Assembly (NCBI RefSeq): GCF_965641715.1
Contig: NZ_OZ282453.1
Length of the DNA: 64,000 nt
Reading direction: 5' to 3' (one strand)
Origin: Escherichia coli
Lineage (GTDB): Bacteria > Pseudomonadota > Gammaproteobacteria > Enterobacterales > Enterobacteriaceae
The notes under the pieces are model-generated. The model searched no databases. It saw nothing but the letters and a program-made list of their open reading frames with translations, and was not told the origin of the DNA. The position numbers were made by a program, and so were the translations under genes. This document shows positions 18,561 to 50,937 of this stretch, in pieces. Position 1 is the first letter of the stretch, and each line of letters begins with the position of its first letter.

Positions 18561-19472
18561 ATGGATGACTGTGGTGCGGTTTTGCATAATATTGAAACCA
18601 AATGGCTTTATGATTTTCTGACCCTGGAAAAATGCCGCAATTTTTCCCAGGCGGCAGTCAGTCGTAACGTCTCGCAACCGGCATTCAGCCGCCGCATCCG
18701 CGCGCTGGAACAGGCGATTGGCGTTGAATTGTTTAACCGCCAGGTGACGCCGCTGCAACTCTCAGAACAAGGGAAAATCTTCCATTCGCAGATCCGCCAT
18801 CTGTTGCAACAGTTAGAAAGTAACCTTGCAGAGCTGCGTGGCGGCAGCGATTACGCGCAACGTAAAATCAAGATAGCCGCTGCACACTCTCTTTCCCTCG
18901 GTCTGTTACCGTCCATTATCAGCCAGATGCCGCCGCTCTTTACCTGGGCGATTGAAGCTATTGATGTCGATGAAGCAGTCGATAAACTGCGTGAAGGGCA
19001 AAGTGACTGTATTTTTTCCTTTCACGACGAAGATTTGCTGGAAGCGCCGTTTGACCACATTCGCTTATTTGAATCTCAATTATTCCCTGTCTGCGCCAGT
19101 GACGAACACGGAGAAGCACTTTTTAACCTCGCGCAGCCACACTTTCCGTTACTGAATTACAGCCGCAACTCCTACATGGGGCGATTGATTAATCGCACCC
19201 TGACGCGCCACAGCGAGTTAAGTTTCAGCACCTTTTTTGTCTCTTCGATGAGCGAGCTATTAAAGCAGGTTGCCCTCGACGGCTGTGGGATTGCCTGGCT
19301 GCCGGAGTATGCCATCCAACAAGAAATTCGCAGCGGGCAGCTCGTTGTGCTGAATCGGGACGAACTGGTGATCCCGATTCAGGCCTACGCATACCGGATG
19401 AATACCCGCATGAATCCAGTTGCCGAACGCTTCTGGCGTGAACTGCGCGAGCTGGAGATTGTGCTTAGCTGA
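18561..19472 (+). CDS. hypT: LysR-family transcriptional regulator (hypochlorite-responsive HypT)
   Basis: 303-aa ORF; N-terminal LysR HTH ([32 protein letters not shown]). Confidence 0.85.
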
Positions 19473-19857
19473 CATTCTCCAGCGTCGCACTGCGCCAACC
19501 GCCATTATCCCAGACCAGATCAAACGTTAGCGGTTCATCGTCGTGGTACAGCATTATCTCAAGGCTGATCGCCAGAGTGTGGCAGTACGCTTCTTTCAAA
19601 TTAACCTGCAACGCCGCAATCCGTGGCTCATGAAATAACAGTGCAGAACGCAGCTGACGGCAATACCAGCTCTGGAGATGTTTGTCGCTCGGGTTATGCA
19701 CTTGCCACTCGGGCATGCCTGAAACAAGTAATGACGGTAATGCCGAATGAGGAGAATTAAAAAGAGTGAGGAGATCGCTGCATACCGATTTACGCAGCAA
19801 TGACGTTTTATTGCCTGAAATTTCAGGTAAAACAGCCTGAAGTGATTGGCGCATCAT
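19465..19857 (-). CDS. iraD: anti-adaptor protein IraD (RssB inhibitor)
   Basis: ORF 19465-19866; K-12 start at [12 protein letters not shown]; convergent with and overlapping the hypT 3' end. Confidence 0.8.
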
Positions 19858-20529
19858 TTTGCGCACTCCTGACGTTTAGCAACATATGCGGCTTGCCCTG
19901 AACACCGGGCACCACTGTATTGATGCTCATTTTCCATAGCCATTCCCTTTTGTTCATTACATCCATGTCAGTCTGAGACAGGCCTGAATCCTGTCAGCAA
20001 AGTATAAAACCTTACTTGCCTATGAATATCTACTGACTTTTCAGGAAAAAAGTCATGATTTGATAAAAATCATCAAACTCAAAAAAAAACCGCTAGTATA
20101 TTCTGAATATTCCGAATAGTTACGTAGATGAAAATTCTTGTCACCGCCGCTACTTAATTTCGGTGGGAAATTATTTATTTCCGCATAATCAGCCATGTAT
20201 TATTTGAAACAATTAGTTTGTAAATAATATAAATTGATAACATATCAAATACATCAAAAATACCATTCACAGGCATTATTAATATAGACATCAATATAGC
20301 AACATCAAATTCCAATTAGTAATAAGATATGCTTTTTAATTGCATGAAAATAATTTCAAATGAGCGTTTTTTGATACTTTAGAGTGTTTCCTACCCTTTA
20401 ATATCACCGTGTAGAGTTGATATCACTACAACAGAAACATGCATGTCATTTTTTTACTTCTCATTTTACTACAGAAAAATTTATCTATTTTTCTAAACAT
20501 CAGTGAAATACTCATAAAAGGTAACTATT

Positions 20530-21360
20530 ATGTCTATGCCATTAAGCAATACCCTTCAGAGCCAAATTATTACAGATAATCACTTCCTTCATCATCCAAA
20601 AGTCGACAGTGAGTTAACACGTAAATATGAACGTGCACGCCTGGATACGGAAAATATCTATCTTCTGCCTCTTGCTCGTGGCAATAACCATAATTACGAT
20701 GGAAAAAGCGTTGTCGAAATTAGAAAACTTGATATTAGTAAAGAGTCCTGGCCATTTAATTATGTGACAGAAGCATGCAGAGAATCCGATGGTATTACAA
20801 CAACAGGACGTATGCTCTATCGAAACTTGAAAATCACCTCAGCTTTAGACGAAATATATGGTGGCATATGTAAAAAGGCGCATGCTGCTACAGAATTAGC
20901 AGAAGGTTTACGGCTAAATTTATTTATGAAGAGCCCTTTCGATCCTGTTGAGGACTATACAGTTCATGAAATAACATTAGGCCCTGGTTGCAATGTTCCA
21001 GGTTACGCCGGAACCACGATAGGATATATTTCAACCCTTCCAGTTTCTCAGGCAAAAAGATGGACCAATGAGCAGCCAAGAATTGATATCTATATTGATC
21101 AGATAATAACTGTCTCAGGGGTAGCAAATTCTTCCGGATTCGCCCTTGCCGCATTACTTAATGCTAATATTGAGATGGGAAATGACCCAATCATTGGTAT
21201 AGAAGCCTATCCTGGTACCGCGGAGATCCATGCAAAAATGGGATATAAAGTTATCCCCGGTGATGAAGATGCGCCACTCAAACGCATGACTCTGCAACCG
21301 TCATCTCTTCCAGAACTGTTTGAATTAAAAAATGGTGAATGGAATTATATTGGCAAATAA
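20530..21360 (+). CDS. yjiC: uncharacterised protein YjiC
   Basis: 276-aa ORF in a low-GC segment, preceded by about 660 bp of AT-rich non-coding DNA. Confidence 0.7.
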   Translation: MSMPLSNTLQSQIITDNHFLHHPKVDSELTRKYERARLDTENIYLLPLARGNNHNYDGKSVVEIRKLDISKESWPFNYVTEACRESDGITTTGRMLYRNLKITSALDEIYGGICKKAHAATELAEGLRLNLFMKSPFDPVEDYTVHEITLGPGCNVPGYAGTTIGYISTLPVSQAKRWTNEQPRIDIYIDQIITVSGVANSSGFALAALLNANIEMGNDPIIGIEAYPGTAEIHAKMGYKVIPGDEDAPLKRMTLQPSSLPELFELKNGEWNYIGK

Positions 21361-21500
21361 CCACTGAGAAGAATGAGTACTAACATTCAGGTTATATAGA
21401 TATTTAAACAATACCCTGCAATTTACAAAGTAATACTCATTGCGACTTCTTAATTTAAGAAAGCGCAAGGAACGTTTACCCTTGCGCTTATCATAATCAG

Positions 21501-22274
21501 TCAGGCGTCGACTTTATCCAGCGGCCATGAATCAAAGAGATAGCCGTCAAAATAAATATCGTCAACGTTCGAGAATTCCAGCAGACGTTGCTTAACGTTT
21601 TCCAGATGCTGCCACATTGCCAGCTTCGCCGCTCGGGCATCTTTTTTGATTAACGCGGCAAGGATCTGTTTGTGATCGCCCAACCACTCTTTGCGATACA
21701 GGCTGTCATCCAGATGGCTGTGCAACTGGATCCACATTGGATTGTTTTCCCGCCACTGCCAGGACTGACGGAATAACTCCACCAGCATGCTGTTATGCGT
21801 TGCTTCAGCAATGGCGAGATGGAACTGCATGTCACCGCTTTCGCTGCTACCCGGCGCGCTGGAAGCCAGTTCACGCTCTTCCAGTTGCAATGCCTGACGC
21901 ATTTTGACGATATCTTCGCGGGTAGCCTGCAGGGCGGCAAACTCGGCGATGTTACTTTCCAGTAACTGACGCGCCTGTAACAGCTCAAAAGGACCCGCAT
22001 CATTGCAGACGTTGGCATCCGGACTGTCTGTGTTGTGGCTGCCTGAGCTATCAAGAACATAGATACCGGCACCCCGGCGCACTTCCACCAGCCCTTTGAT
22101 CTCCAGCATGATCAGCGCTTCACGTACCACCGTCCGCGTGACATCAAGCATTTCTGCAATTTCACGCTCCGGCGGCAGCCGTTCGCCAGGATTGTACGGC
22201 GTCTTTATGATCAGATCGCGGATCATCGCCCCGACTTCCTGGTAAGGTCTTTGCGCAGAGGTGGCAGATTTCAT
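21501..22274 (-). CDS. uxuR: GntR/FadR-family repressor of hexuronate utilisation
   Basis: 257-aa ORF; GntR HTH (RLPPEREIAEMLDVTRTVVREAL). Confidence 0.9.
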   Translation of the reverse strand: MKSATSAQRPYQEVGAMIRDLIIKTPYNPGERLPPEREIAEMLDVTRTVVREALIMLEIKGLVEVRRGAGIYVLDSSGSHNTDSPDANVCNDAGPFELLQARQLLESNIAEFAALQATREDIVKMRQALQLEERELASSAPGSSESGDMQFHLAIAEATHNSMLVELFRQSWQWRENNPMWIQLHSHLDDSLYRKEWLGDHKQILAALIKKDARAAKLAMWQHLENVKQRLLEFSNVDDIYFDGYLFDSWPLDKVDA

Positions 22275-33118: not shown

Positions 33119-33667
33119 TTATTGATACTGAACCTTGAAGGTCGCATCCGCATTAGCTGCGCCAGGGGTTGCGACACCAATTGCATAATAACGCGCCTGG
33201 AACGGAATGGTGTTGGTTCCGTTATTCAGGGTTGTTTGTGCACTAAATGACGCACCATCCAGCGCCAACGCAGCTCCTGTTTTATCCAGGATCTGCACAC
33301 CAACGTTTGTTGCGCTACCCGCAGCAGAACTCTGCAGAGCCAGTACGTTGGTATGATTCGTGTCAATTGTTGTACCTAAGAAGGCAACAGCAGCTTTGCT
33401 TGCAACATCGGTATCGCAATCATTCAGCTGAATGTTAAAACCGACAGCAGAGCTGGTCGCTCCATCCTGGTCCAGCGAAGCGGTACGAACCTGACCTAAC
33501 TGAACGGTTTGATCAACAGAGCCTGCATCAACTGCGCAAGCGGCGTTAACAACTTCCCCTTTAAAGTGAACGGTCCCACCATTAACCGTCGTGGCAGCGG
33601 CCAGAGCCGCTGTAGAACTGAGGGACAGAGCCGACAGAACAACGATTGCCAGAGTTTTAATTTTCAT
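33119..33667 (-). CDS. fimA: type 1 fimbrial major subunit
   Basis: ORF 33119-33724; start at [23 protein letters not shown] (33667). Confidence 0.95.
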
Positions 33668-33786
33668 GCTGCTTTCCTTTAAAAAAACTATTTCTAAATC
33701 GACATGGGCAGTCGTTCTGTACACTTTGTTTTGTCAACGAGTTTGACTGCCAACACTGCACAGTTTTCCCCCAAAAGATGAAACAT

Positions 33787-34100
33787 TTGGGGCCATTTTG
33801 ACTCATAGAGGAAAGCATCGCGCACAAACTTTTTCAGTTTATTTGTTGGCTTAATATTCTATTGTTATCTTTATTTATAGATTTTTATATTGCATGAGGT
33901 GGTTTTTGGAGAGAAGAATGAGGAAGATGCGTCGAGCCACAGAAACGTTAGCTTTACATATAGCGGAGGTGATGTGAAATTAATTTACAAGAGAAATAAT
34001 TTACATATCAAACAGTTAGATGGTTTTTGTCGTTTTTTAAAATTTTTATGCTTGAGAAAAAATACGTAACTTATTTATGATATGGACAGTTTGGCCCCAA
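33787..34100. promoter_or_regulatory. fimS: fimS invertible promoter element (314 bp) bounded by 9-bp inverted repeats
   Basis: ttggggcca at 33787-33795 and its reverse complement tggccccaa at 34092-34100; sigma70-like TTGAGA-N17-TATGAT at about 34045-34074 reads toward fimE (+ strand). Confidence 0.85.
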
Positions 34101-34147
34101 TTGTCTTGTATTTATTTTTTTTTTAACTTTATTATCAATAAGTTAAA

Positions 34148-34744
34148 TCAAACCTCTTCTCTTTTTAATTTTTCGTTTATGAGATTATTTCTTTCCCATA
34201 ATCCGGCAAAACGAGCAGCATTACTGGCGGTATAACGTACAGTATGGCGAATATTTCGATGCCCGAGATAATCCTGAATTAAACGAGTATCTGCACCACG
34301 CTCCGCCAGTTCATAACCGCAAGCATGCCTTAACATATGAGGATGAGTCTGCGTTACGGTTCCAGCTTCAATACCGGCATCGCGAATAATGCGATAGGCC
34401 TGCTGGCGAGAAAGCCGACTCCCGCGGCGAGAAATAAATATAGCGTCGGTCCGGTCAGCGCCTTTCCAGTTAGCACGTTCCTGGGTCCAGCGTTCCACAG
34501 CTTCACGCTCATCAAAACGTAACGGGTGAACGGTAGAAAATCCGTTCTTCAGTCGGCGAATATTTATTCGACCTTCATTAAGGTCAAGATCCTGATAATG
34601 CAGATCAAGTAGTTCACTAATACGCATCCCATGCCGATATGCCAACAGAATAAGGCAATAATCTCTGGCTCCCGTTGCCCCGTAACAAACCGCCTGCATC
34701 ATGGCCTGAACTTCTTTACCGGTAAGATAACGACGTTTACTCAC
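34148..34744 (-). CDS. fimE: fimS site-specific tyrosine recombinase (ON-to-OFF)
   Basis: 198-aa ORF; tyrosine recombinase C-terminus (HMLRHACGYELAERGADTRLIQDYLGHRNIRHTVRYT). Confidence 0.95.
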   Translation of the reverse strand: MSKRRYLTGKEVQAMMQAVCYGATGARDYCLILLAYRHGMRISELLDLHYQDLDLNEGRINIRRLKNGFSTVHPLRFDEREAVERWTQERANWKGADRTDAIFISRRGSRLSRQQAYRIIRDAGIEAGTVTQTHPHMLRHACGYELAERGADTRLIQDYLGHRNIRHTVRYTASNAARFAGLWERNNLINEKLKREEV

Positions 34745-35221
34745 AATAGTAGTACTCCTAACTGAGATATATTTGAATGAATACCTATAGGAAACCTCAA
34801 TCGGTCAAAATTAGCCCAATAGATAAAAAGATAACCACACACGAAGTGATATGGCTATCAGTCAATTACATTAAATATCATACAAAAATAAAATATCACT
34901 GATGTGATAACATCTATTTTCATTGATTTGATTCAATATAACAATAGATTGCAGTGGATTAACTTCCAGTTGCTTAAAAAATAAAGAAAAAAGTGCAGAA
35001 ACAGGAGAATTTAAGTGATGTGTAAATTTATGAATGATTTTGTTTATTTATTTTGAAGAACATAAACCATTGTATTTTGTGTGGATATGGTTAACTTAAT
35101 GTTTATTATGAAAATTAATAATCACACTTACAATAACATCAATTAATAAATGGTTAATCATTTTTGATATATCGTAAGAATAATGTAGTTTTTAACACCA
35201 TCCCTGGTATCTCAACTATCT

Positions 35222-35824
35222 CTATAAAACAGCGTGACGCTGTCGTCCTCTGGCTCTATCCCAGATGCCGTAAAAACGCCCTGCATTGCTGGCGGTATAC
35301 CAGACAGTATGACGAATATTGCGATGCCCAAGATAATCCTGGATAAGTCGCGTATCTATTCCCATATTCGCCAAAGCAAAACCACACGAATGGCGTAACA
35401 TGTGCGGATGAATCTCCAGTGACAACCCGGCATTACCACCGGAAGTCGAGATAATATGGTAAAACTGTTGCCGAGAAAGCGGATTTCCCTTACGTGATAA
35501 AAATACCCACTCGCTCTCAGCATGCGGGTACGAAGTACGGATACTCAACCAGTTTTTTAAAGCCTGAACTTCTTTGTTCAATAGCGGATGCGTTGTTGAA
35601 AAGCCTTTTTTTAATCGATGGATATATATACACTTTGCCTTAAGATCAATATCCGAAATCCTCAATCGACAAATTTCACTCGCCCGGAAACCATGAATAA
35701 AACAAAGCAAAGTCAGACAATAATTACGTGCTGCATGAGGCCCGGTATTTGCTGCTTTAAGGAGTGATTCGATTTCACTATGGGTCAGGAAGTTCCTTTT
35801 TTTGTTATCAGCCTTATTCTTCAT
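35222..35824 (-). CDS. fimB: fimS site-specific tyrosine recombinase (bidirectional)
   Basis: ORF 35222-35854; start at MKNKADNKKRNFLT (35824); paralogous to FimE. Confidence 0.95.
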   Translation of the reverse strand: MKNKADNKKRNFLTHSEIESLLKAANTGPHAARNYCLTLLCFIHGFRASEICRLRISDIDLKAKCIYIHRLKKGFSTTHPLLNKEVQALKNWLSIRTSYPHAESEWVFLSRKGNPLSRQQFYHIISTSGGNAGLSLEIHPHMLRHSCGFALANMGIDTRLIQDYLGHRNIRHTVWYTASNAGRFYGIWDRARGRQRHAVL

Positions 35825-36838
35825 CGTTTTTCCCTTATAATTACAGACGCGCACTAGCTGTGCTGGGTTAGCAATAATCCAACATTTTTATCCTGATTAT
35901 GTTTATAAAAGCGAACGTTTGCTTAATAACTAACGTAAGTGGACCAGTTCTTCTGAGTGAACTTAAATGGAGTAGCAACAGTTAATTATAATAACGTTGC
36001 CATACAAACGCTATGCTCTTGCATGCTATGTACCTTTATATATTTATCAATCGGATACGAATCTAATAATAACCCTCATCATTAATGCAACTAATCTTAT
36101 CTATATATCATGTGATATGTTCTGTAACAAGTAAAATCAACATAAAAAATTCAGCAAAATTTAATATTCGTTCAACTAGCCGTCTCACATATGACATTAT
36201 TAGTCAACTCCATTTGCCACAAAATGGCTATTTCATGGAACGCAGTAATTTCTTAGTGGCTATTATCATGCTAATTCTTAGGTCCCTAGCGATTATTCCT
36301 GGCTGGTTCGTCAGTTTAGGCCATGAGATTGTTACATTCCTTTTTATCATGGAGATATGGGGGAAAGCAGGAAACGATTTTTTCATCTACATTCGTTGGT
36401 AAATATAGCTTTGGTCACTACGACTTAAACCTTCCTCAATCACAGGTATTCGCCGGGCGATACGGCAAACAAACTAAGTGAAACATCATCCTGAAAACAC
36501 CAACATCAACAAGCCTCTCCAGATCGACTTCAGAAGTGACCAGTTACAAGCCACAAACCAGGAAACATATTTCATGATGAGAATTATGCTCAGCCTGATG
36601 GCGGGTAAACACTGATTTTCACCAAGCTCACTGAGTTAGCTTGCAAAGCTTTCCTTGTTTAGACTCTAAATAAATTATTTATAAAACAAATAGTTAAACG
36701 AAGATCTTTAGTTTTTGAAGACCACCGCAAGTGTTCGTCTGGCTTCACATGGCATCTTCCTCTTAGAAAAAGATCGACATATTTTGTGACACGAATTGCA
36801 AATCTGGTTTTGTTGTATGGATTGCGTGATTTTTGATC

Positions 36839-36859
36839 TGGTATAACAGGTATAAAGGT
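36839..36859. promoter_or_regulatory. NanR operator-like GGTATA repeat upstream of nanC
   Basis: ggtataacaggtataaaggtg, the GGTATA-repeat pattern of NanR operators, in the long fimB-nanC intergenic region. Confidence 0.5.
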
Positions 36860-37278
36860 GAACCACGATAGACAATGAGACAGGGCATCTCGCAATCTAT
36901 GGCAAACATCACTTCAGTTCTTTCTCATCGGGTGATGAAAACGCACTTCAGTCTGAAAGGAATATGAAAATGAGATCAACAGACACTCTATTTTATGACT
37001 CTGGGTAAAATGAATTGAGTAAGTGATCTAGCTTACGAACATTCAAATCAATTAAACATCAGAATAGATTTTATACTCAAGTATTTAATCTGGCTCTCTG
37101 TTTATTTAAATAATGTGGAAAGAGATTTTTCACAGGAGACATTATACAAAAAATATAAAATACAGCTATCGGTTGCCAAAGACACTATAAGCCTGGCAAA
37201 AAATATTACACAACATAAATGCTAATTGTTTATGCGGGCTTTGTATTGCTTTCTGTATCCTACAAATGAGTGAAATTT

Positions 37279-40824: not shown

Positions 40825-41517
40825 GGGGAATATCCTTATACGTTCTCAGAACAGGCAGCAAAAAAACAAATGAGATCAAGGTAATATATCTTCACTTGCA
40901 GGCTTGAACAGCAGAAAATTTGCGAGCATGATCGCAATTATTTCACTGCCAGGGATATCAATGGCTTCCAGTAAATCGCTACAGCAGGCAATTGCCAATA
41001 TAAAAATCTGGCACAAGGGTGAACAGCGCACGCCGCATAAGCCATTGTTATTGCTATACGTATTAGCGGGATACCTGAATGGACATCCGCACCTTTTCGA
41101 TTATTGTAGTGGAACAGTCTACGAGGATGCAGTTCGAAGTGAGTAAGTAAAGGTTGCTGGAAACGATCAATGCCGCCATACAATGATATTTGAGGATCAA
41201 CAATGAGTAATAAAAACTACGAAAGTCACCGCAAAGCGATTGTTAGTAAAGGTATACCACCCGCTCTATTAAATAGGCTCACCAATTCGGATGTTCAGGT
41301 GATCAATACCTTCTTAACACGAGTGAGCAAACTGGAACTATCTCAACAAGAGAAAGACTGGATCATAAAAATCATCTCTATGGTTTAGAGAATTTCAGCC
41401 TTGTAGTGGTCAACAAAAACTGGTCACAATTTTAGATTTTTCCAGTATCTATTTTCCGATTCGTTCGGCGGTAATCCACCGATATATTCATGAGGCCGGG
41501 GTACACTACAATATTCA

Positions 41518-41649
<132 letters not shown>

Positions 41650-41841
41650 CTACTTGATCCGATAACACCACAGCACCTACCTGAACTGTCCGCTTGTGTA
41701 ATGGCTCCCCTGGTCGCCCTTTTAAGAGTCAAGACGTTATCGGGATGCTGTTGATTTCGTTGTAATGTATAAACTTCACGTCGCCACACCACACTTGATT
41801 TGGCTCTGTCACGGCGAACTGCCGTTCAGGGAGTCCTGACA

Positions 41842-42027
41842 TCAAGAGCGCGGTAGCTTTTTTCCTTTAGCCTCACGTATTTCGATTTGTTCCGGAATTA
41901 TCAGGGAGGTTTTTGGTGTTTTGCCCTTACGCTCATCACGCTGTTGTTTGCCCCATCTTGTTATCGAGGAAAAGCCGACATCCATAGCTTTGGCGGCATC
42001 TGCCACAGTATTGTTCGGGGTGAACAT
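41842..42027 (-). mobile_element. IS3-family (IS911-like) transposase OrfA remnant
   Basis: 61-aa fragment [33 protein letters not shown]...PEQIEIRE resembles the IS911/IS3 OrfA HTH region; no intact transposase or terminal repeats seen. Confidence 0.7.
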
Positions 42028-42301
42028 ATCCTCTGTTCAGGTGGACAAATTCAGTAAACCATTACATATGAGGCAGTGGCGGTAACACGGTCTCAACGAT
42101 ATGACGCTGCACACTACGATAAAAAAGAGGAGTTTAAAGATAAGATAAAGGGCGGCTTCAGGGGGATAAAATAGAATGTAATGCGCAGAAAACACGTATA
42201 AATTTCAAACAACGATGGTTAAAAAGTTAGCTGGGTCAACTCCCCCACACTGAGTCGGTGGAGGAGTATTCGTGATTAAGGGACGAAGGTTATAGACCGT
42301 G

Positions 42302-49239: not shown

Positions 49240-50364
49240 TCTTCTTCCCCTTAATATAAATGCACCTGCAACCACTCAGCCAAACGCTCAACGTCAAAAC
49301 CCGTAATCCATACTCCCACGCCAAAAACGTCTTCGATAAATATTCATCATATTTTCGAGGCACTTTTCAGAGATGCTCTTGGCAAGACGGGACTCAGGGG
49401 GTAAACCTTCCTGTAGTAAATTGCTTAGCGTCTGCTTAACTTTCCCGAGCGTATTTTTTCAACTACGGCAGCAAATGAGACGGTCTTAAAACCGTGCAGG
49501 ATAGGCCATATCTACAACGTGTTTACTACTTGAGCACACATTGTGATATGGCAGTCACCTTTCCGACAAATGGTGAACCGTCCCTGACGAACAACAACAT
49601 TAACGCATATCTCTTCATCGCCTGATCAAAGTAGCTGCCAACTATTATTCGCCTCAACAATGAGTTTTTTTACTAACGATTTCTACTACCTTCCCAAAGC
49701 GACCACAACAATCAAAAATATTGTTTACACATCAGTCTCATATCACCGGAGTAAGTTGACTATTGATAAACCATTTCAAGATATTAATAGCTGATCATAC
49801 TTCCCCAAAGTGCTTATTTATAGCGAAGGCAAATAGCATAAACTGAAGGGCGAATTGTTAAATCATACCGTGAATGAGCTGAAGAACAAGCATAAAAATT
49901 ATATCATTTACATGACTTATGTGTTTTAGTTAAATGATAAATAGGCAGTATAAAATCCAATTCAACAGCCGAGTTCAAGCGATTAATTTTTTGATGAGCT
50001 TATCAAGCACGAGCAGCGATACCAGCAAATCCACTTGGTTGCTTGAAGAATATGACTCCTTCAACACATAGCAGATTATCTCCGCCGTTGGTAGAGAACC
50101 GTTCACCGTTGTTAGTCAACAGTTATAAATTTATATTAATGATTAGAAGAATCTATCTCGGGGTAGATCATCAACATTACTTATTCTAAACCACGTTACA
50201 CATGATCTCCGGGGCAGCGAAGTCATCAAAAAAGAGTATTATAAAACTCCGCCCTTAAGGAGAAAGGTTTCCTGGCGGTTGTAATGCCGTTGACGATACA
50301 GCGCACAACACGGATATAAACAACCATTTGATTGATTAATATCTGAAGGGCTGTTTATATTTAA

Positions 50365-50553
50365 TCAAGCTAACGATTCATTAATCTTTACATAGAGATG
50401 AGGTAATGTGGCCTCATTGCGATTCACATCCAGATAATCCGCCCCCCACTGCAGCATCTGCCGCTCTACCGCATCTCTCGGCCATAGCCCCGACTCAATC
50501 AACGACCTACACGCCATTGCCCTGAAACCATGCCCACAAAAAGCAGCTCTCAA
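50365..50553 (-). pseudogene. P4-type tyrosine integrase C-terminal remnant
   Basis: HGFRAMACRSLIESGLWPRDAVERQM ... WGADYLDVNR resembles the C-terminus of P4-like integrases with an internal deletion; no N-terminal part present. Confidence 0.65.
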
Positions 50554-50937
50554 TTTCCATTCATGCTTTATACCTTTTCTAATAGGCTTTTGCTTCAGGC
50601 TTAGCCGAACGAACCTTCACATCACTCAAAGCCATGATGAATACCCTTTCAAGGGTTTTGTGTGGGTACAAACATTATCCAATCGGGATATACCCGCAGC
50701 TGTAGCTGTACCCGCATCAGTAAGTTGATGTAGATTCGAAAAATAGCGGAAACCCTGTGTGACACTGATTTCAGGCACAAAAAAAGACGTCTGTTGACGT
50801 CTATTGATGGTGCGAAGGCCGCACCGCGATTCCAGACTCAACAATATGAAATCAATGGATTTTTAAAAATGCGAAGTTACTTTGTATACTCACATGTATA
50901 CTCAGTACCATTTCTTAAGAAATCAATTCATTCAATA

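Follow-up and report, generated by a model that had tools for sequence, protein, structure and literature searches.

What is the role of the unusually long, AT-rich gap that separates iraD from the divergent gene yjiC in Escherichia coli? We analyzed this gap within a 64,000-nucleotide stretch of an E. coli contig (NZ_OZ282453.1, assembly GCF_965641715.1), referred to here as the window, in which the gene order iadA, hypT, iraD (minus strand), gap, yjiC (plus strand), uxuR, uxuB is syntenic with K-12. A preliminary description, made from the sequence alone, had regarded the gap as non-coding DNA of a type bound by H-NS and acquired horizontally, possibly containing iraD promoters and/or a small RNA. 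Our analysis indicates with high confidence that the gap serves as the control region for iraD transcription and translation, arranged back-to-back with yjiC. This is the already known, experimentally dissected iraD control region that is annotated in RefSeq, and as such it is not new.

The iraD–yjiC gap and its K-12 counterpart

IraD matches the NCBIfam equivalog NF010726 with 303.6 bits (cutoff 198), aligned over residues 1-130 of 130. The full-length match fixes the iraD start at the ATG at 19857 and hence the gap at 19858-20529; the left edge previously placed at 19867 stems from an in-frame GTG upstream of this ATG. The K-12 gap is likewise 672 bp long and was termed 'unusually large for E. 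coli' (Sass et al.). Among the stretches of the window that lack an open reading frame (ORF) of at least 100 aa, the gap is the fifth-longest, and its GC content is the lowest of all such stretches longer than 500 bp. At a GC content of 0.32, versus 0.472 for the whole window, it is matched by just 1.4% of 672-bp windows. It contains nine A/T homopolymer tracts of at least 5 bases, compared with 3.8 ± 1.8 in composition-matched shuffles. The initial view of a long, strongly AT-rich gap with poly-A/T tracts is thus borne out.

The base composition follows a gradient, with a GC content of 0.48 in 19858-19994, 0.30 in 19995-20274, and 0.26 in 20275-20529. Relative to the window (0.47), the gap is therefore AT-rich from 19995 to 20529, whereas the 137 bp next to iraD are not. 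The most AT-rich stretch, 20275-20529, is variable within E. coli, with ~8 variable columns per 100 bp, and our search of it found no mapped feature; for the yjiC promoter, neither a start site nor a regulator was found. Other low-GC stretches or long ORF-poor gaps of the window lie at 4700-6900, 33500-37000, 49300-50800, and 55400-57200; 34745-35221 has a GC content of 0.26, and 49276-50793 and 40825-42301 are devoid of ORFs of at least 100 aa.

The gap is identical to that of K-12 at 663 of 672 positions (98.7%). Counted from the iraD ATG, the nine substitutions are confined to the stretch from -606 to -279, and the two strains are identical over the 278 nt adjoining iraD (-278 to -1). Three of the substitutions alter YtiD residues and one is located in the P1 spacer; no functional difference is known to result from the nine. 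The neighboring genes, the length, the promoter hexamers, the GGA sites, idlP, and the ATGA overlap of the K-12 P1/P2 leader region, with ytiC, ytiD, and idlP (b4720-b4722), are all shared with the window. Owing to this near-identity, the K-12 experiments could be mapped directly onto the window, a K-12 position -n corresponding to window position 19857 + n (Table 1). All functional evidence cited below comes from K-12 and is transferred to the strain of the window by sequence identity.

Table 1 Features of the iraD–yjiC region in window coordinates, with positions relative to the iraD ATG in parentheses.
Feature	Position	Strand	Characteristics and basis
iraD, RssB anti-adaptor stabilizing RpoS	19465-19857	-	NCBIfam NF010726, Pfam GPW_gp25, RefSeq annotation
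iraD Shine-Dalgarno AGGAG (19866-19870) and hairpin GCGCA/UGCGC around the start codon	19848-19870	-	MFE and consensus folds
idlP (ORF27), 27-codon leader ORF, translational-coupling device	19854-19937	-	translation, annotation; function PMC5574718
iraD–yjiC divergent intergenic region	19858-20529		672 bp, GC 0.32; ORF map, RefSeq and K-12 annotation, composition
Proposed DnaA box TTTTCCATA ('box -81')	19930-19938	+	sequence present
CsrA site BS4, weak, overlaps idlP start codon	GGA 19933-19935 (-78)	-	PMC5574718
CsrA site BS3, overlaps idlP Shine-Dalgarno	19941-19947 (-90 to -84)	-	PMC5574718
CsrA site BS2, critical, high-affinity	19960-19969 (-112 to -103)	-	footprint PMC5574718
CsrA site BS1	GGA 19989-19991 (-134)	-	works only in P1 transcripts (PMC5574718)
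Promoter P2	start 19994 (-137); -10 TATACT 20001-20006	-	no good -35; published start and sequence
ytiD (ORF47), 47-codon leader ORF	20053-20196	-	annotation, PMC5574718
HusR (YnfL) motif CCGCTAGTATATTCTG	20090-20105		genomic SELEX, PMC12844172 Table 1; verbatim in window
yjiC-linked variable segment	20122-21500		1379 bp, low GC; pairwise alignment with A22-type allele
ytiC	20175-20243 (22-aa form, PGAP) or 20175-20276 (33-aa form, K-12)	-	annotation
Promoter P1	start 20274 (-417); -10 TATATT 20281-20286; -35 TTGATG 20303-20308	-	16-nt spacer; published start and consensus scan
Most AT-rich stretch, upstream of P1, with unmapped yjiC promoter and 5' UTR	20275-20529		GC 0.26; composition
yjiC, DUF2686 protein of unknown function	20530-21360	+	GC 0.40; Pfam PF10887, 508.8 bits; annotation

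Promoters and translational control of iraD

For K-12, Sass et al. and PMC5574718 give two iraD transcription start sites, -417 for P1 and -137 for P2; papers that cite the original mapping attribute it to Merrikh 2009 (J Bacteriol). Both lie in the gap, as the preliminary description had surmised for the iraD promoters. Its suggested comparison with the mapped promoters finds core elements 7 nt from both K-12 start sites: the P1 hexamers TTGATG-16-TATATT, located by a consensus scan, end 7 nt before -417, and the P2 hexamer TATACT, read from the sequence, ends 7 nt before -137. P1 uses sigma70 and explains why iraD expression rises during late log phase, while P2 is used by sigma70 or sigmaS and is active in every growth phase (Sass et al.; PMC5574718). 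Both promoters respond to ppGpp and, independently of LexA, to the replication inhibitor AZT, and are modulated by SspA (Sass et al.). In K-12 RNA-seq data, AZT induced ytiC 260-fold, ytiD 33-fold, idlP 18-fold, iraD 14-fold, and the divergent yjiC 11-fold, the P1-proximal ytiC being the most strongly AZT-induced RNA in the cell. Promoter activity and its regulation by ppGpp, SspA, and replication stress, as demonstrated for K-12, can be expected to hold for the strain of the window. E. coli 2018-18.25PC (NZ_AP023286.1, 3626-5328) has lost both P1 and P2: in this strain, yjiC and all DNA upstream of about -125 of iraD have given way to two IS1 copies.

Downstream of the promoters, the transcripts carry a second layer of control that the preliminary description had missed, namely repression by CsrA through translational coupling of idlP and iraD. 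In K-12, CsrA binds four GGA sites of the leader and represses idlP directly and iraD only through translational coupling (Park et al., PMC5574718); a CsrA review with CLIP-seq data forms a further part of the basis for CsrA control of iraD. GGA motifs occur in the window at -134, -107, -89, -78, and -12, exactly as in K-12. CsrA binding has been shown for the K-12 sites, and these matching motifs suggest that it would occur equally in the window. The GGA of BS2 at -107 is present in all Escherichia alleles (at -105 in E. albertii), and that of BS3 at -89 is likewise conserved (-88 in E. albertii). BS4 retains its GGA in the window and has lost it in E. albertii.

The idlP gene is preceded by AAGGGA and encodes a product of 27 aa, and its TGA stop shares bases with the iraD start codon (ATGA). 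We compared its geometry in E. albertii, E. whittamii, Escherichia sp. E1V33, E69, SCPM-O-B-8794, and A22-type E. coli; all seven Escherichia alleles have an idlP of 27 codons that begins with an ATG at -80 and overlaps iraD by ATGA. The IdlP protein is identical in 12 of 12 E. coli alleles and shares 55-78% aa identity with its counterparts in other Escherichia and A22-type alleles. This pattern fits a device in which position and translation outweigh the peptide.

Sequestration of the Shine-Dalgarno sequence (SD) of iraD by RNA structure has been reported in K-12 (PMC5574718). In our minimum-free-energy (MFE) and consensus folds, the 3' edge of the SD and the iraD start codon lie within a stem-loop, and thermodynamically the P2 leader folds no more stably than shuffled sequence (z = 0.10). 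The SD/start hairpin is invariant in all alleles, which makes covariation uninformative; in the consensus fold of the seven Escherichia alleles, the covariation term contributes just -1.5 kcal/mol. Given this z-score and the near absence of covariation, the structural part of the explanation rests on the published probing and not on the folds computed here.

Taken together with the K-12 literature, these features point to the following mechanism, which has been shown in K-12 and is carried over to the window by sequence identity. P1, responsive to late log phase, ppGpp, and replication stress, and the constitutive P2 would fire leftward on the minus strand and give leaders of 417 and 137 nt. 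With its own ribosome site sequestered, iraD would be translated only while ribosomes translate idlP, the stop codon of which overlaps the start of iraD (AUGA). CsrA bound to BS1-BS4 around the idlP ribosome site would block idlP translation, switching off iraD and destabilizing the mRNA. Titration of CsrA by CsrB and CsrC would raise IraD and thereby protect RpoS from RssB/ClpXP. The two other short ORFs, ytiC and ytiD, would be translated from the leader without effect on iraD. Repression by CsrA of other E. coli mRNAs, such as csrA and pnp (PMC5574718), similarly involves several GGA sites in the leader, one of them on an SD. Unlike in csrA and pnp, the ribosome site occluded in the iraD leader is that of the upstream leader ORF idlP and not that of the regulated gene.

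The gap is consequently neither non-coding nor free of credible ORFs, as had been assumed: 417 of its 672 bp are transcribed as iraD leader, and the three short ORFs within it, idlP, ytiD, and ytiC, are annotated in RefSeq and K-12 and were all translated in K-12 (PMC5574718). The 22-aa form of YtiC (ATG at 20243) matches ORF23 of Park et al. and the 'small protein YtiC' of PGAP, and the fusion end points in PMC5574718 fit its frame. This form starts at -386 and has no recognizable Shine-Dalgarno sequence. The ATG of the 33-aa K-12 form occupies -419 to -417 (20274-20276), with the published P1 start at -417 inside it. Either P1 transcripts do not yield the 33-aa YtiC, or transcription begins 2 nt farther upstream and gives a leaderless mRNA.

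Translation from lacZ fusions and strong AZT induction in K-12, along with the hydrophobic character of YtiC, which it shares with many small membrane proteins, could be taken to mean that ytiC and/or ytiD encode functional small proteins and that part of the region is coding DNA in the full sense. However, removal of either start codon left iraD expression unchanged (PMC5574718). The 12 E. coli alleles compared vary at 19 columns of ytiD, almost always with a change of amino acid, and in two of the 12 a single SNP converts the ytiD ATG to ATA and introduces a premature stop in ytiC. Neither ORF is found in E. albertii or in the alleles that lack yjiC, and searches of NCBIfam and Pfam gave no match for YtiC, YtiD, or IdlP. 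On these sequence data, ytiC and ytiD show no constraint at the protein level, and we consider functional proteins improbable; the reading was rejected on the population data from the 12 E. coli alleles.

The gap might instead encode an independent small regulatory RNA, an idea that its length, its many promoter-like sequences, and the short abortive oligonucleotides reported from such regions (PMC3661553) make worth examining. A permissive Rfam scan of 19300-21600 gave only chance-level matches to eukaryotic snoRNAs and lncRNAs, the best at 24 bits versus a gathering threshold of 50, and a terminator scan of the gap detected no terminator-like site on either strand. The promoter-like hexamer pairs occur at chance frequency (four, compared with 4.3 expected from shuffles), no sRNA is annotated at the locus in K-12 or RefSeq, none is mentioned in the papers searched, and the two of these that refer to both iraD and RIL-seq name iraD solely as a CsrA target. 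The small RNA that had been proposed for the gap is thus very improbable, and we retain the iraD control region as the explanation.

Several further inputs to this control region have been proposed. In K-12, mutation of the DnaA box at -81 derepresses iraD, and DnaA binds the 672-bp fragment in vitro in electrophoretic mobility shift assays (Sass et al.). A DnaA ChIP-seq study detected no DnaA at iraD, and its authors doubt that iraD belongs to the regulon (PMC11317965). Direct control of iraD by DnaA is therefore disputed. Matches to eight of the nine box positions occur in the window at chance frequency, so that presence of the motif alone proves nothing. The box overlaps both the idlP start codon and BS4, and given this overlap, the box mutations could act post-transcriptionally.

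Two repeats lie upstream of P2. A near-palindrome at 20099-20118, ATTCGGAATATTCAGAAT on the minus strand, matches at 16 of 18 positions; it shares sequence with the HusR motif, and the 'SEYSEY' repeat of YtiD is encoded by it. The Escherichia alleles that lack yjiC retain it as ATTCGGAATAATCAGAAT, and in E. albertii it is half-deleted. This near-palindrome, which precedes the P2 start by ~105-124 bp, may be a transcription-factor site. An inverted repeat, GACTTTT-N6-AAAAGTC, is located at 20035-20054, where ytiD has its 3' end, and precedes the P2 start by 41-60 bp. All Escherichia alleles conserve its AAAAGT and the bases after it, save for one change in E69; the repeat could be a protein site or form an RNA hairpin in P1 transcripts.

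A conserved core and a variable yjiC-linked segment

Sequence variation divides the gap into two parts. We counted variation among 12 E. coli alleles selected to cover the range of identity. Of the 44 variable columns, 43 fall between -672 and -234 and one between -233 and -1, with -200 to -138 invariant. The distribution shows strong constraint on P2, ~100 bp upstream of it, and the whole P2 leader, whereas the distal part varies like unconstrained DNA. The proximal ~265 bp are common to all Escherichia alleles examined. We infer that the proximal ~235-265 bp, with P2, the CsrA sites, and idlP, form the conserved core of the region.

The distal part with P1 belongs to a low-GC segment whose breakpoints, determined by pairwise alignment, are sharp and lie at the uxuR stop codon (21501) and at 20121. 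The segment, 20122-21500, contains the 5' part of ytiD, ytiC, P1, the 255-bp AT-rich spacer, yjiC, and the yjiC-uxuR spacer. In A22-type E. coli, it is replaced by 151 unrelated bp with a terminator-like hairpin of uxuR, such that in strain A22 uxuR is followed directly by 414 bp and then by iraD, with no yjiC. Of 5,395 complete E. coli genomes with a match, 492 (~9%) carry a divergent allele, the one seen in A22, that matches only the iraD-proximal 264 bp, at 72% identity. The segment is also absent from the four other lineages sampled, E. whittamii and Escherichia sp. E1V33, E69, and SCPM-O-B-8794. In all these yjiC-less alleles, only ~410-420 bp separate uxuR from iraD. Besides yjiC, they lack P1 and ytiC, keep only the 3' half of ytiD, and are 78% identical in the shared part. 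They have in common with the window iraD, idlP with the ATGA overlap, the GGA motifs of BS2-BS4, and sequence aligned to P2, as well as the palindrome ATTCGGAATA.TCAGAAT.

Where yjiC is present, its product diverges far more than the neighboring proteins. YjiC of the window is 93% identical to that of K-12 at the amino acid level, compared with at least 99% for IraD, HypT, UxuR, and IadA, and E. albertii carries a yjiC with 63% aa identity, compared with 95% for UxuR. The present/absent polymorphism of the low-GC 1.38-kb segment and the divergence of YjiC are the observations that bear on horizontal acquisition, and they would fit either gain or loss of the segment. Our one scan of genome contigs with IraD, under strict peptide patterns, returned only Escherichia loci and one contaminant contig, and so no outgroup for gain or loss. 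That contig (NZ_ABFU01000118.1, 605 bp), assigned to 'Bacillus coahuilensis m4-4', encodes an IraD with 99% identity, IdlP, and the end of HypT, and is almost certainly E. coli contamination in a Bacillus assembly.

The yjiC gene is a hotspot of local diversity, and in strain 13P484A it is a frameshifted pseudogene. In E. coli A22 (NZ_CP028753.1, 1-3500), polymorphism extends from the uxuR stop across all of iraD and past it; iraD is 78% identical, encodes 127 aa, and is followed by ptsP-dhaL-dhaK-like genes and not by hypT-iadA. In other lineages, iraD adjoins iadA and hypT is either missing or present as fragments.

The AT-rich part of the gap has been described from another angle. 'yjiC/iraD 4554354_526' is among 78 E. 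coli 'promoter islands' (Panyukov and Ozoline 2013, PMC3661553). Converted from U00096.2 coordinates with an assumed offset of +1977 to U00096.3, this island corresponds to about 19994-20519 of the window, nearly exactly the AT-rich part. It is marked as H-NS-bound ('K') in the ChIP data of Kahramanoglou and Oshima, and GIST, Nakamura, and Lawrence flag it as foreign (PMC3661553). H-NS inhibits iraD expression according to PMC6064147, which cites Battesti 2012 (J Bacteriol) for this result. Binding of the AT-rich part by H-NS and a lowering of iraD expression by H-NS, both published for K-12, probably apply to the strain of the window as well. The H-NS nucleation motif has one match in the gap, at nine of ten positions (20478-20487); this is chance level, so that its presence alone proves nothing.

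These results qualify the notion of an H-NS-bound, horizontally acquired gap. It stands for the distal part, which belongs to a published H-NS-bound island flagged as foreign (PMC3661553) and to a low-GC segment that is present or absent together with yjiC, and it fails for the proximal ~265 bp, which are neither AT-rich nor accessory. The RNA-seq and H-NS ChIP data to which the preliminary description had looked for a check exist for K-12, in the form of the AZT induction and the H-NS occupancy over the locus (PMC3661553).

The same evidence raises the possibility that the distal AT-rich part (~20122-20529) is a silenced foreign remnant whose role is just to bind H-NS, and that P1 is an accidental promoter within it. 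Membership among the 78 islands with their H-NS and foreign labels is in keeping with such a remnant, as are its GC content of 0.26-0.30, the neutral-like variation within E. coli, its absence along with yjiC both from other Escherichia lineages and from ~9% of E. coli, and the lack of conservation of the P1 -10 hexamer in E. albertii. Promoter islands share AT-richness, H-NS binding, and predicted foreign genes with the gap (PMC3661553). However, they are described as transcriptionally almost silent, while the one at iraD holds the productive and strongly inducible P1. In K-12, P1 is regulated and productive, as seen from its late-log induction and from the rank of the ytiC transcript among AZT-induced RNAs. 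We therefore regard a mere remnant as unlikely for the distal part as a whole; for the 255 bp upstream of P1, it is compatible with our main explanation of the gap as the iraD control region.

Within that explanation, we infer that the AT-rich distal part, including P1, belongs to the low-GC segment that travels with yjiC. Tentatively, and with somewhat less than even confidence, we suggest that P1, ytiC, and the 5' part of ytiD are not ancestral, and either came on or were lost with the 1.38-kb, low-GC, H-NS-bound yjiC segment. Xenogeneic AT-rich DNA would then have been recruited as a second promoter for the stabilization of RpoS.

Through IraD, signals of DNA damage, starvation (via ppGpp), and carbon status (via CsrA) bear on how stable the master stress sigma factor RpoS is, and the gap is the meeting place of these inputs. 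This role was established for K-12, and our account of it is nothing new by itself. The sole addition, a modest one, is comparative: P2 and the idlP/CsrA module form a conserved core, and P1 lies on an accessory, yjiC-linked segment. The location of P1 on this segment predicts strain-to-strain differences in IraD induction. If P1 indeed came or went with the segment, the ~9% of E. coli that lack it, together with the other segment-less Escherichia lineages, would differ in their induction of IraD during late log phase and replication stress.
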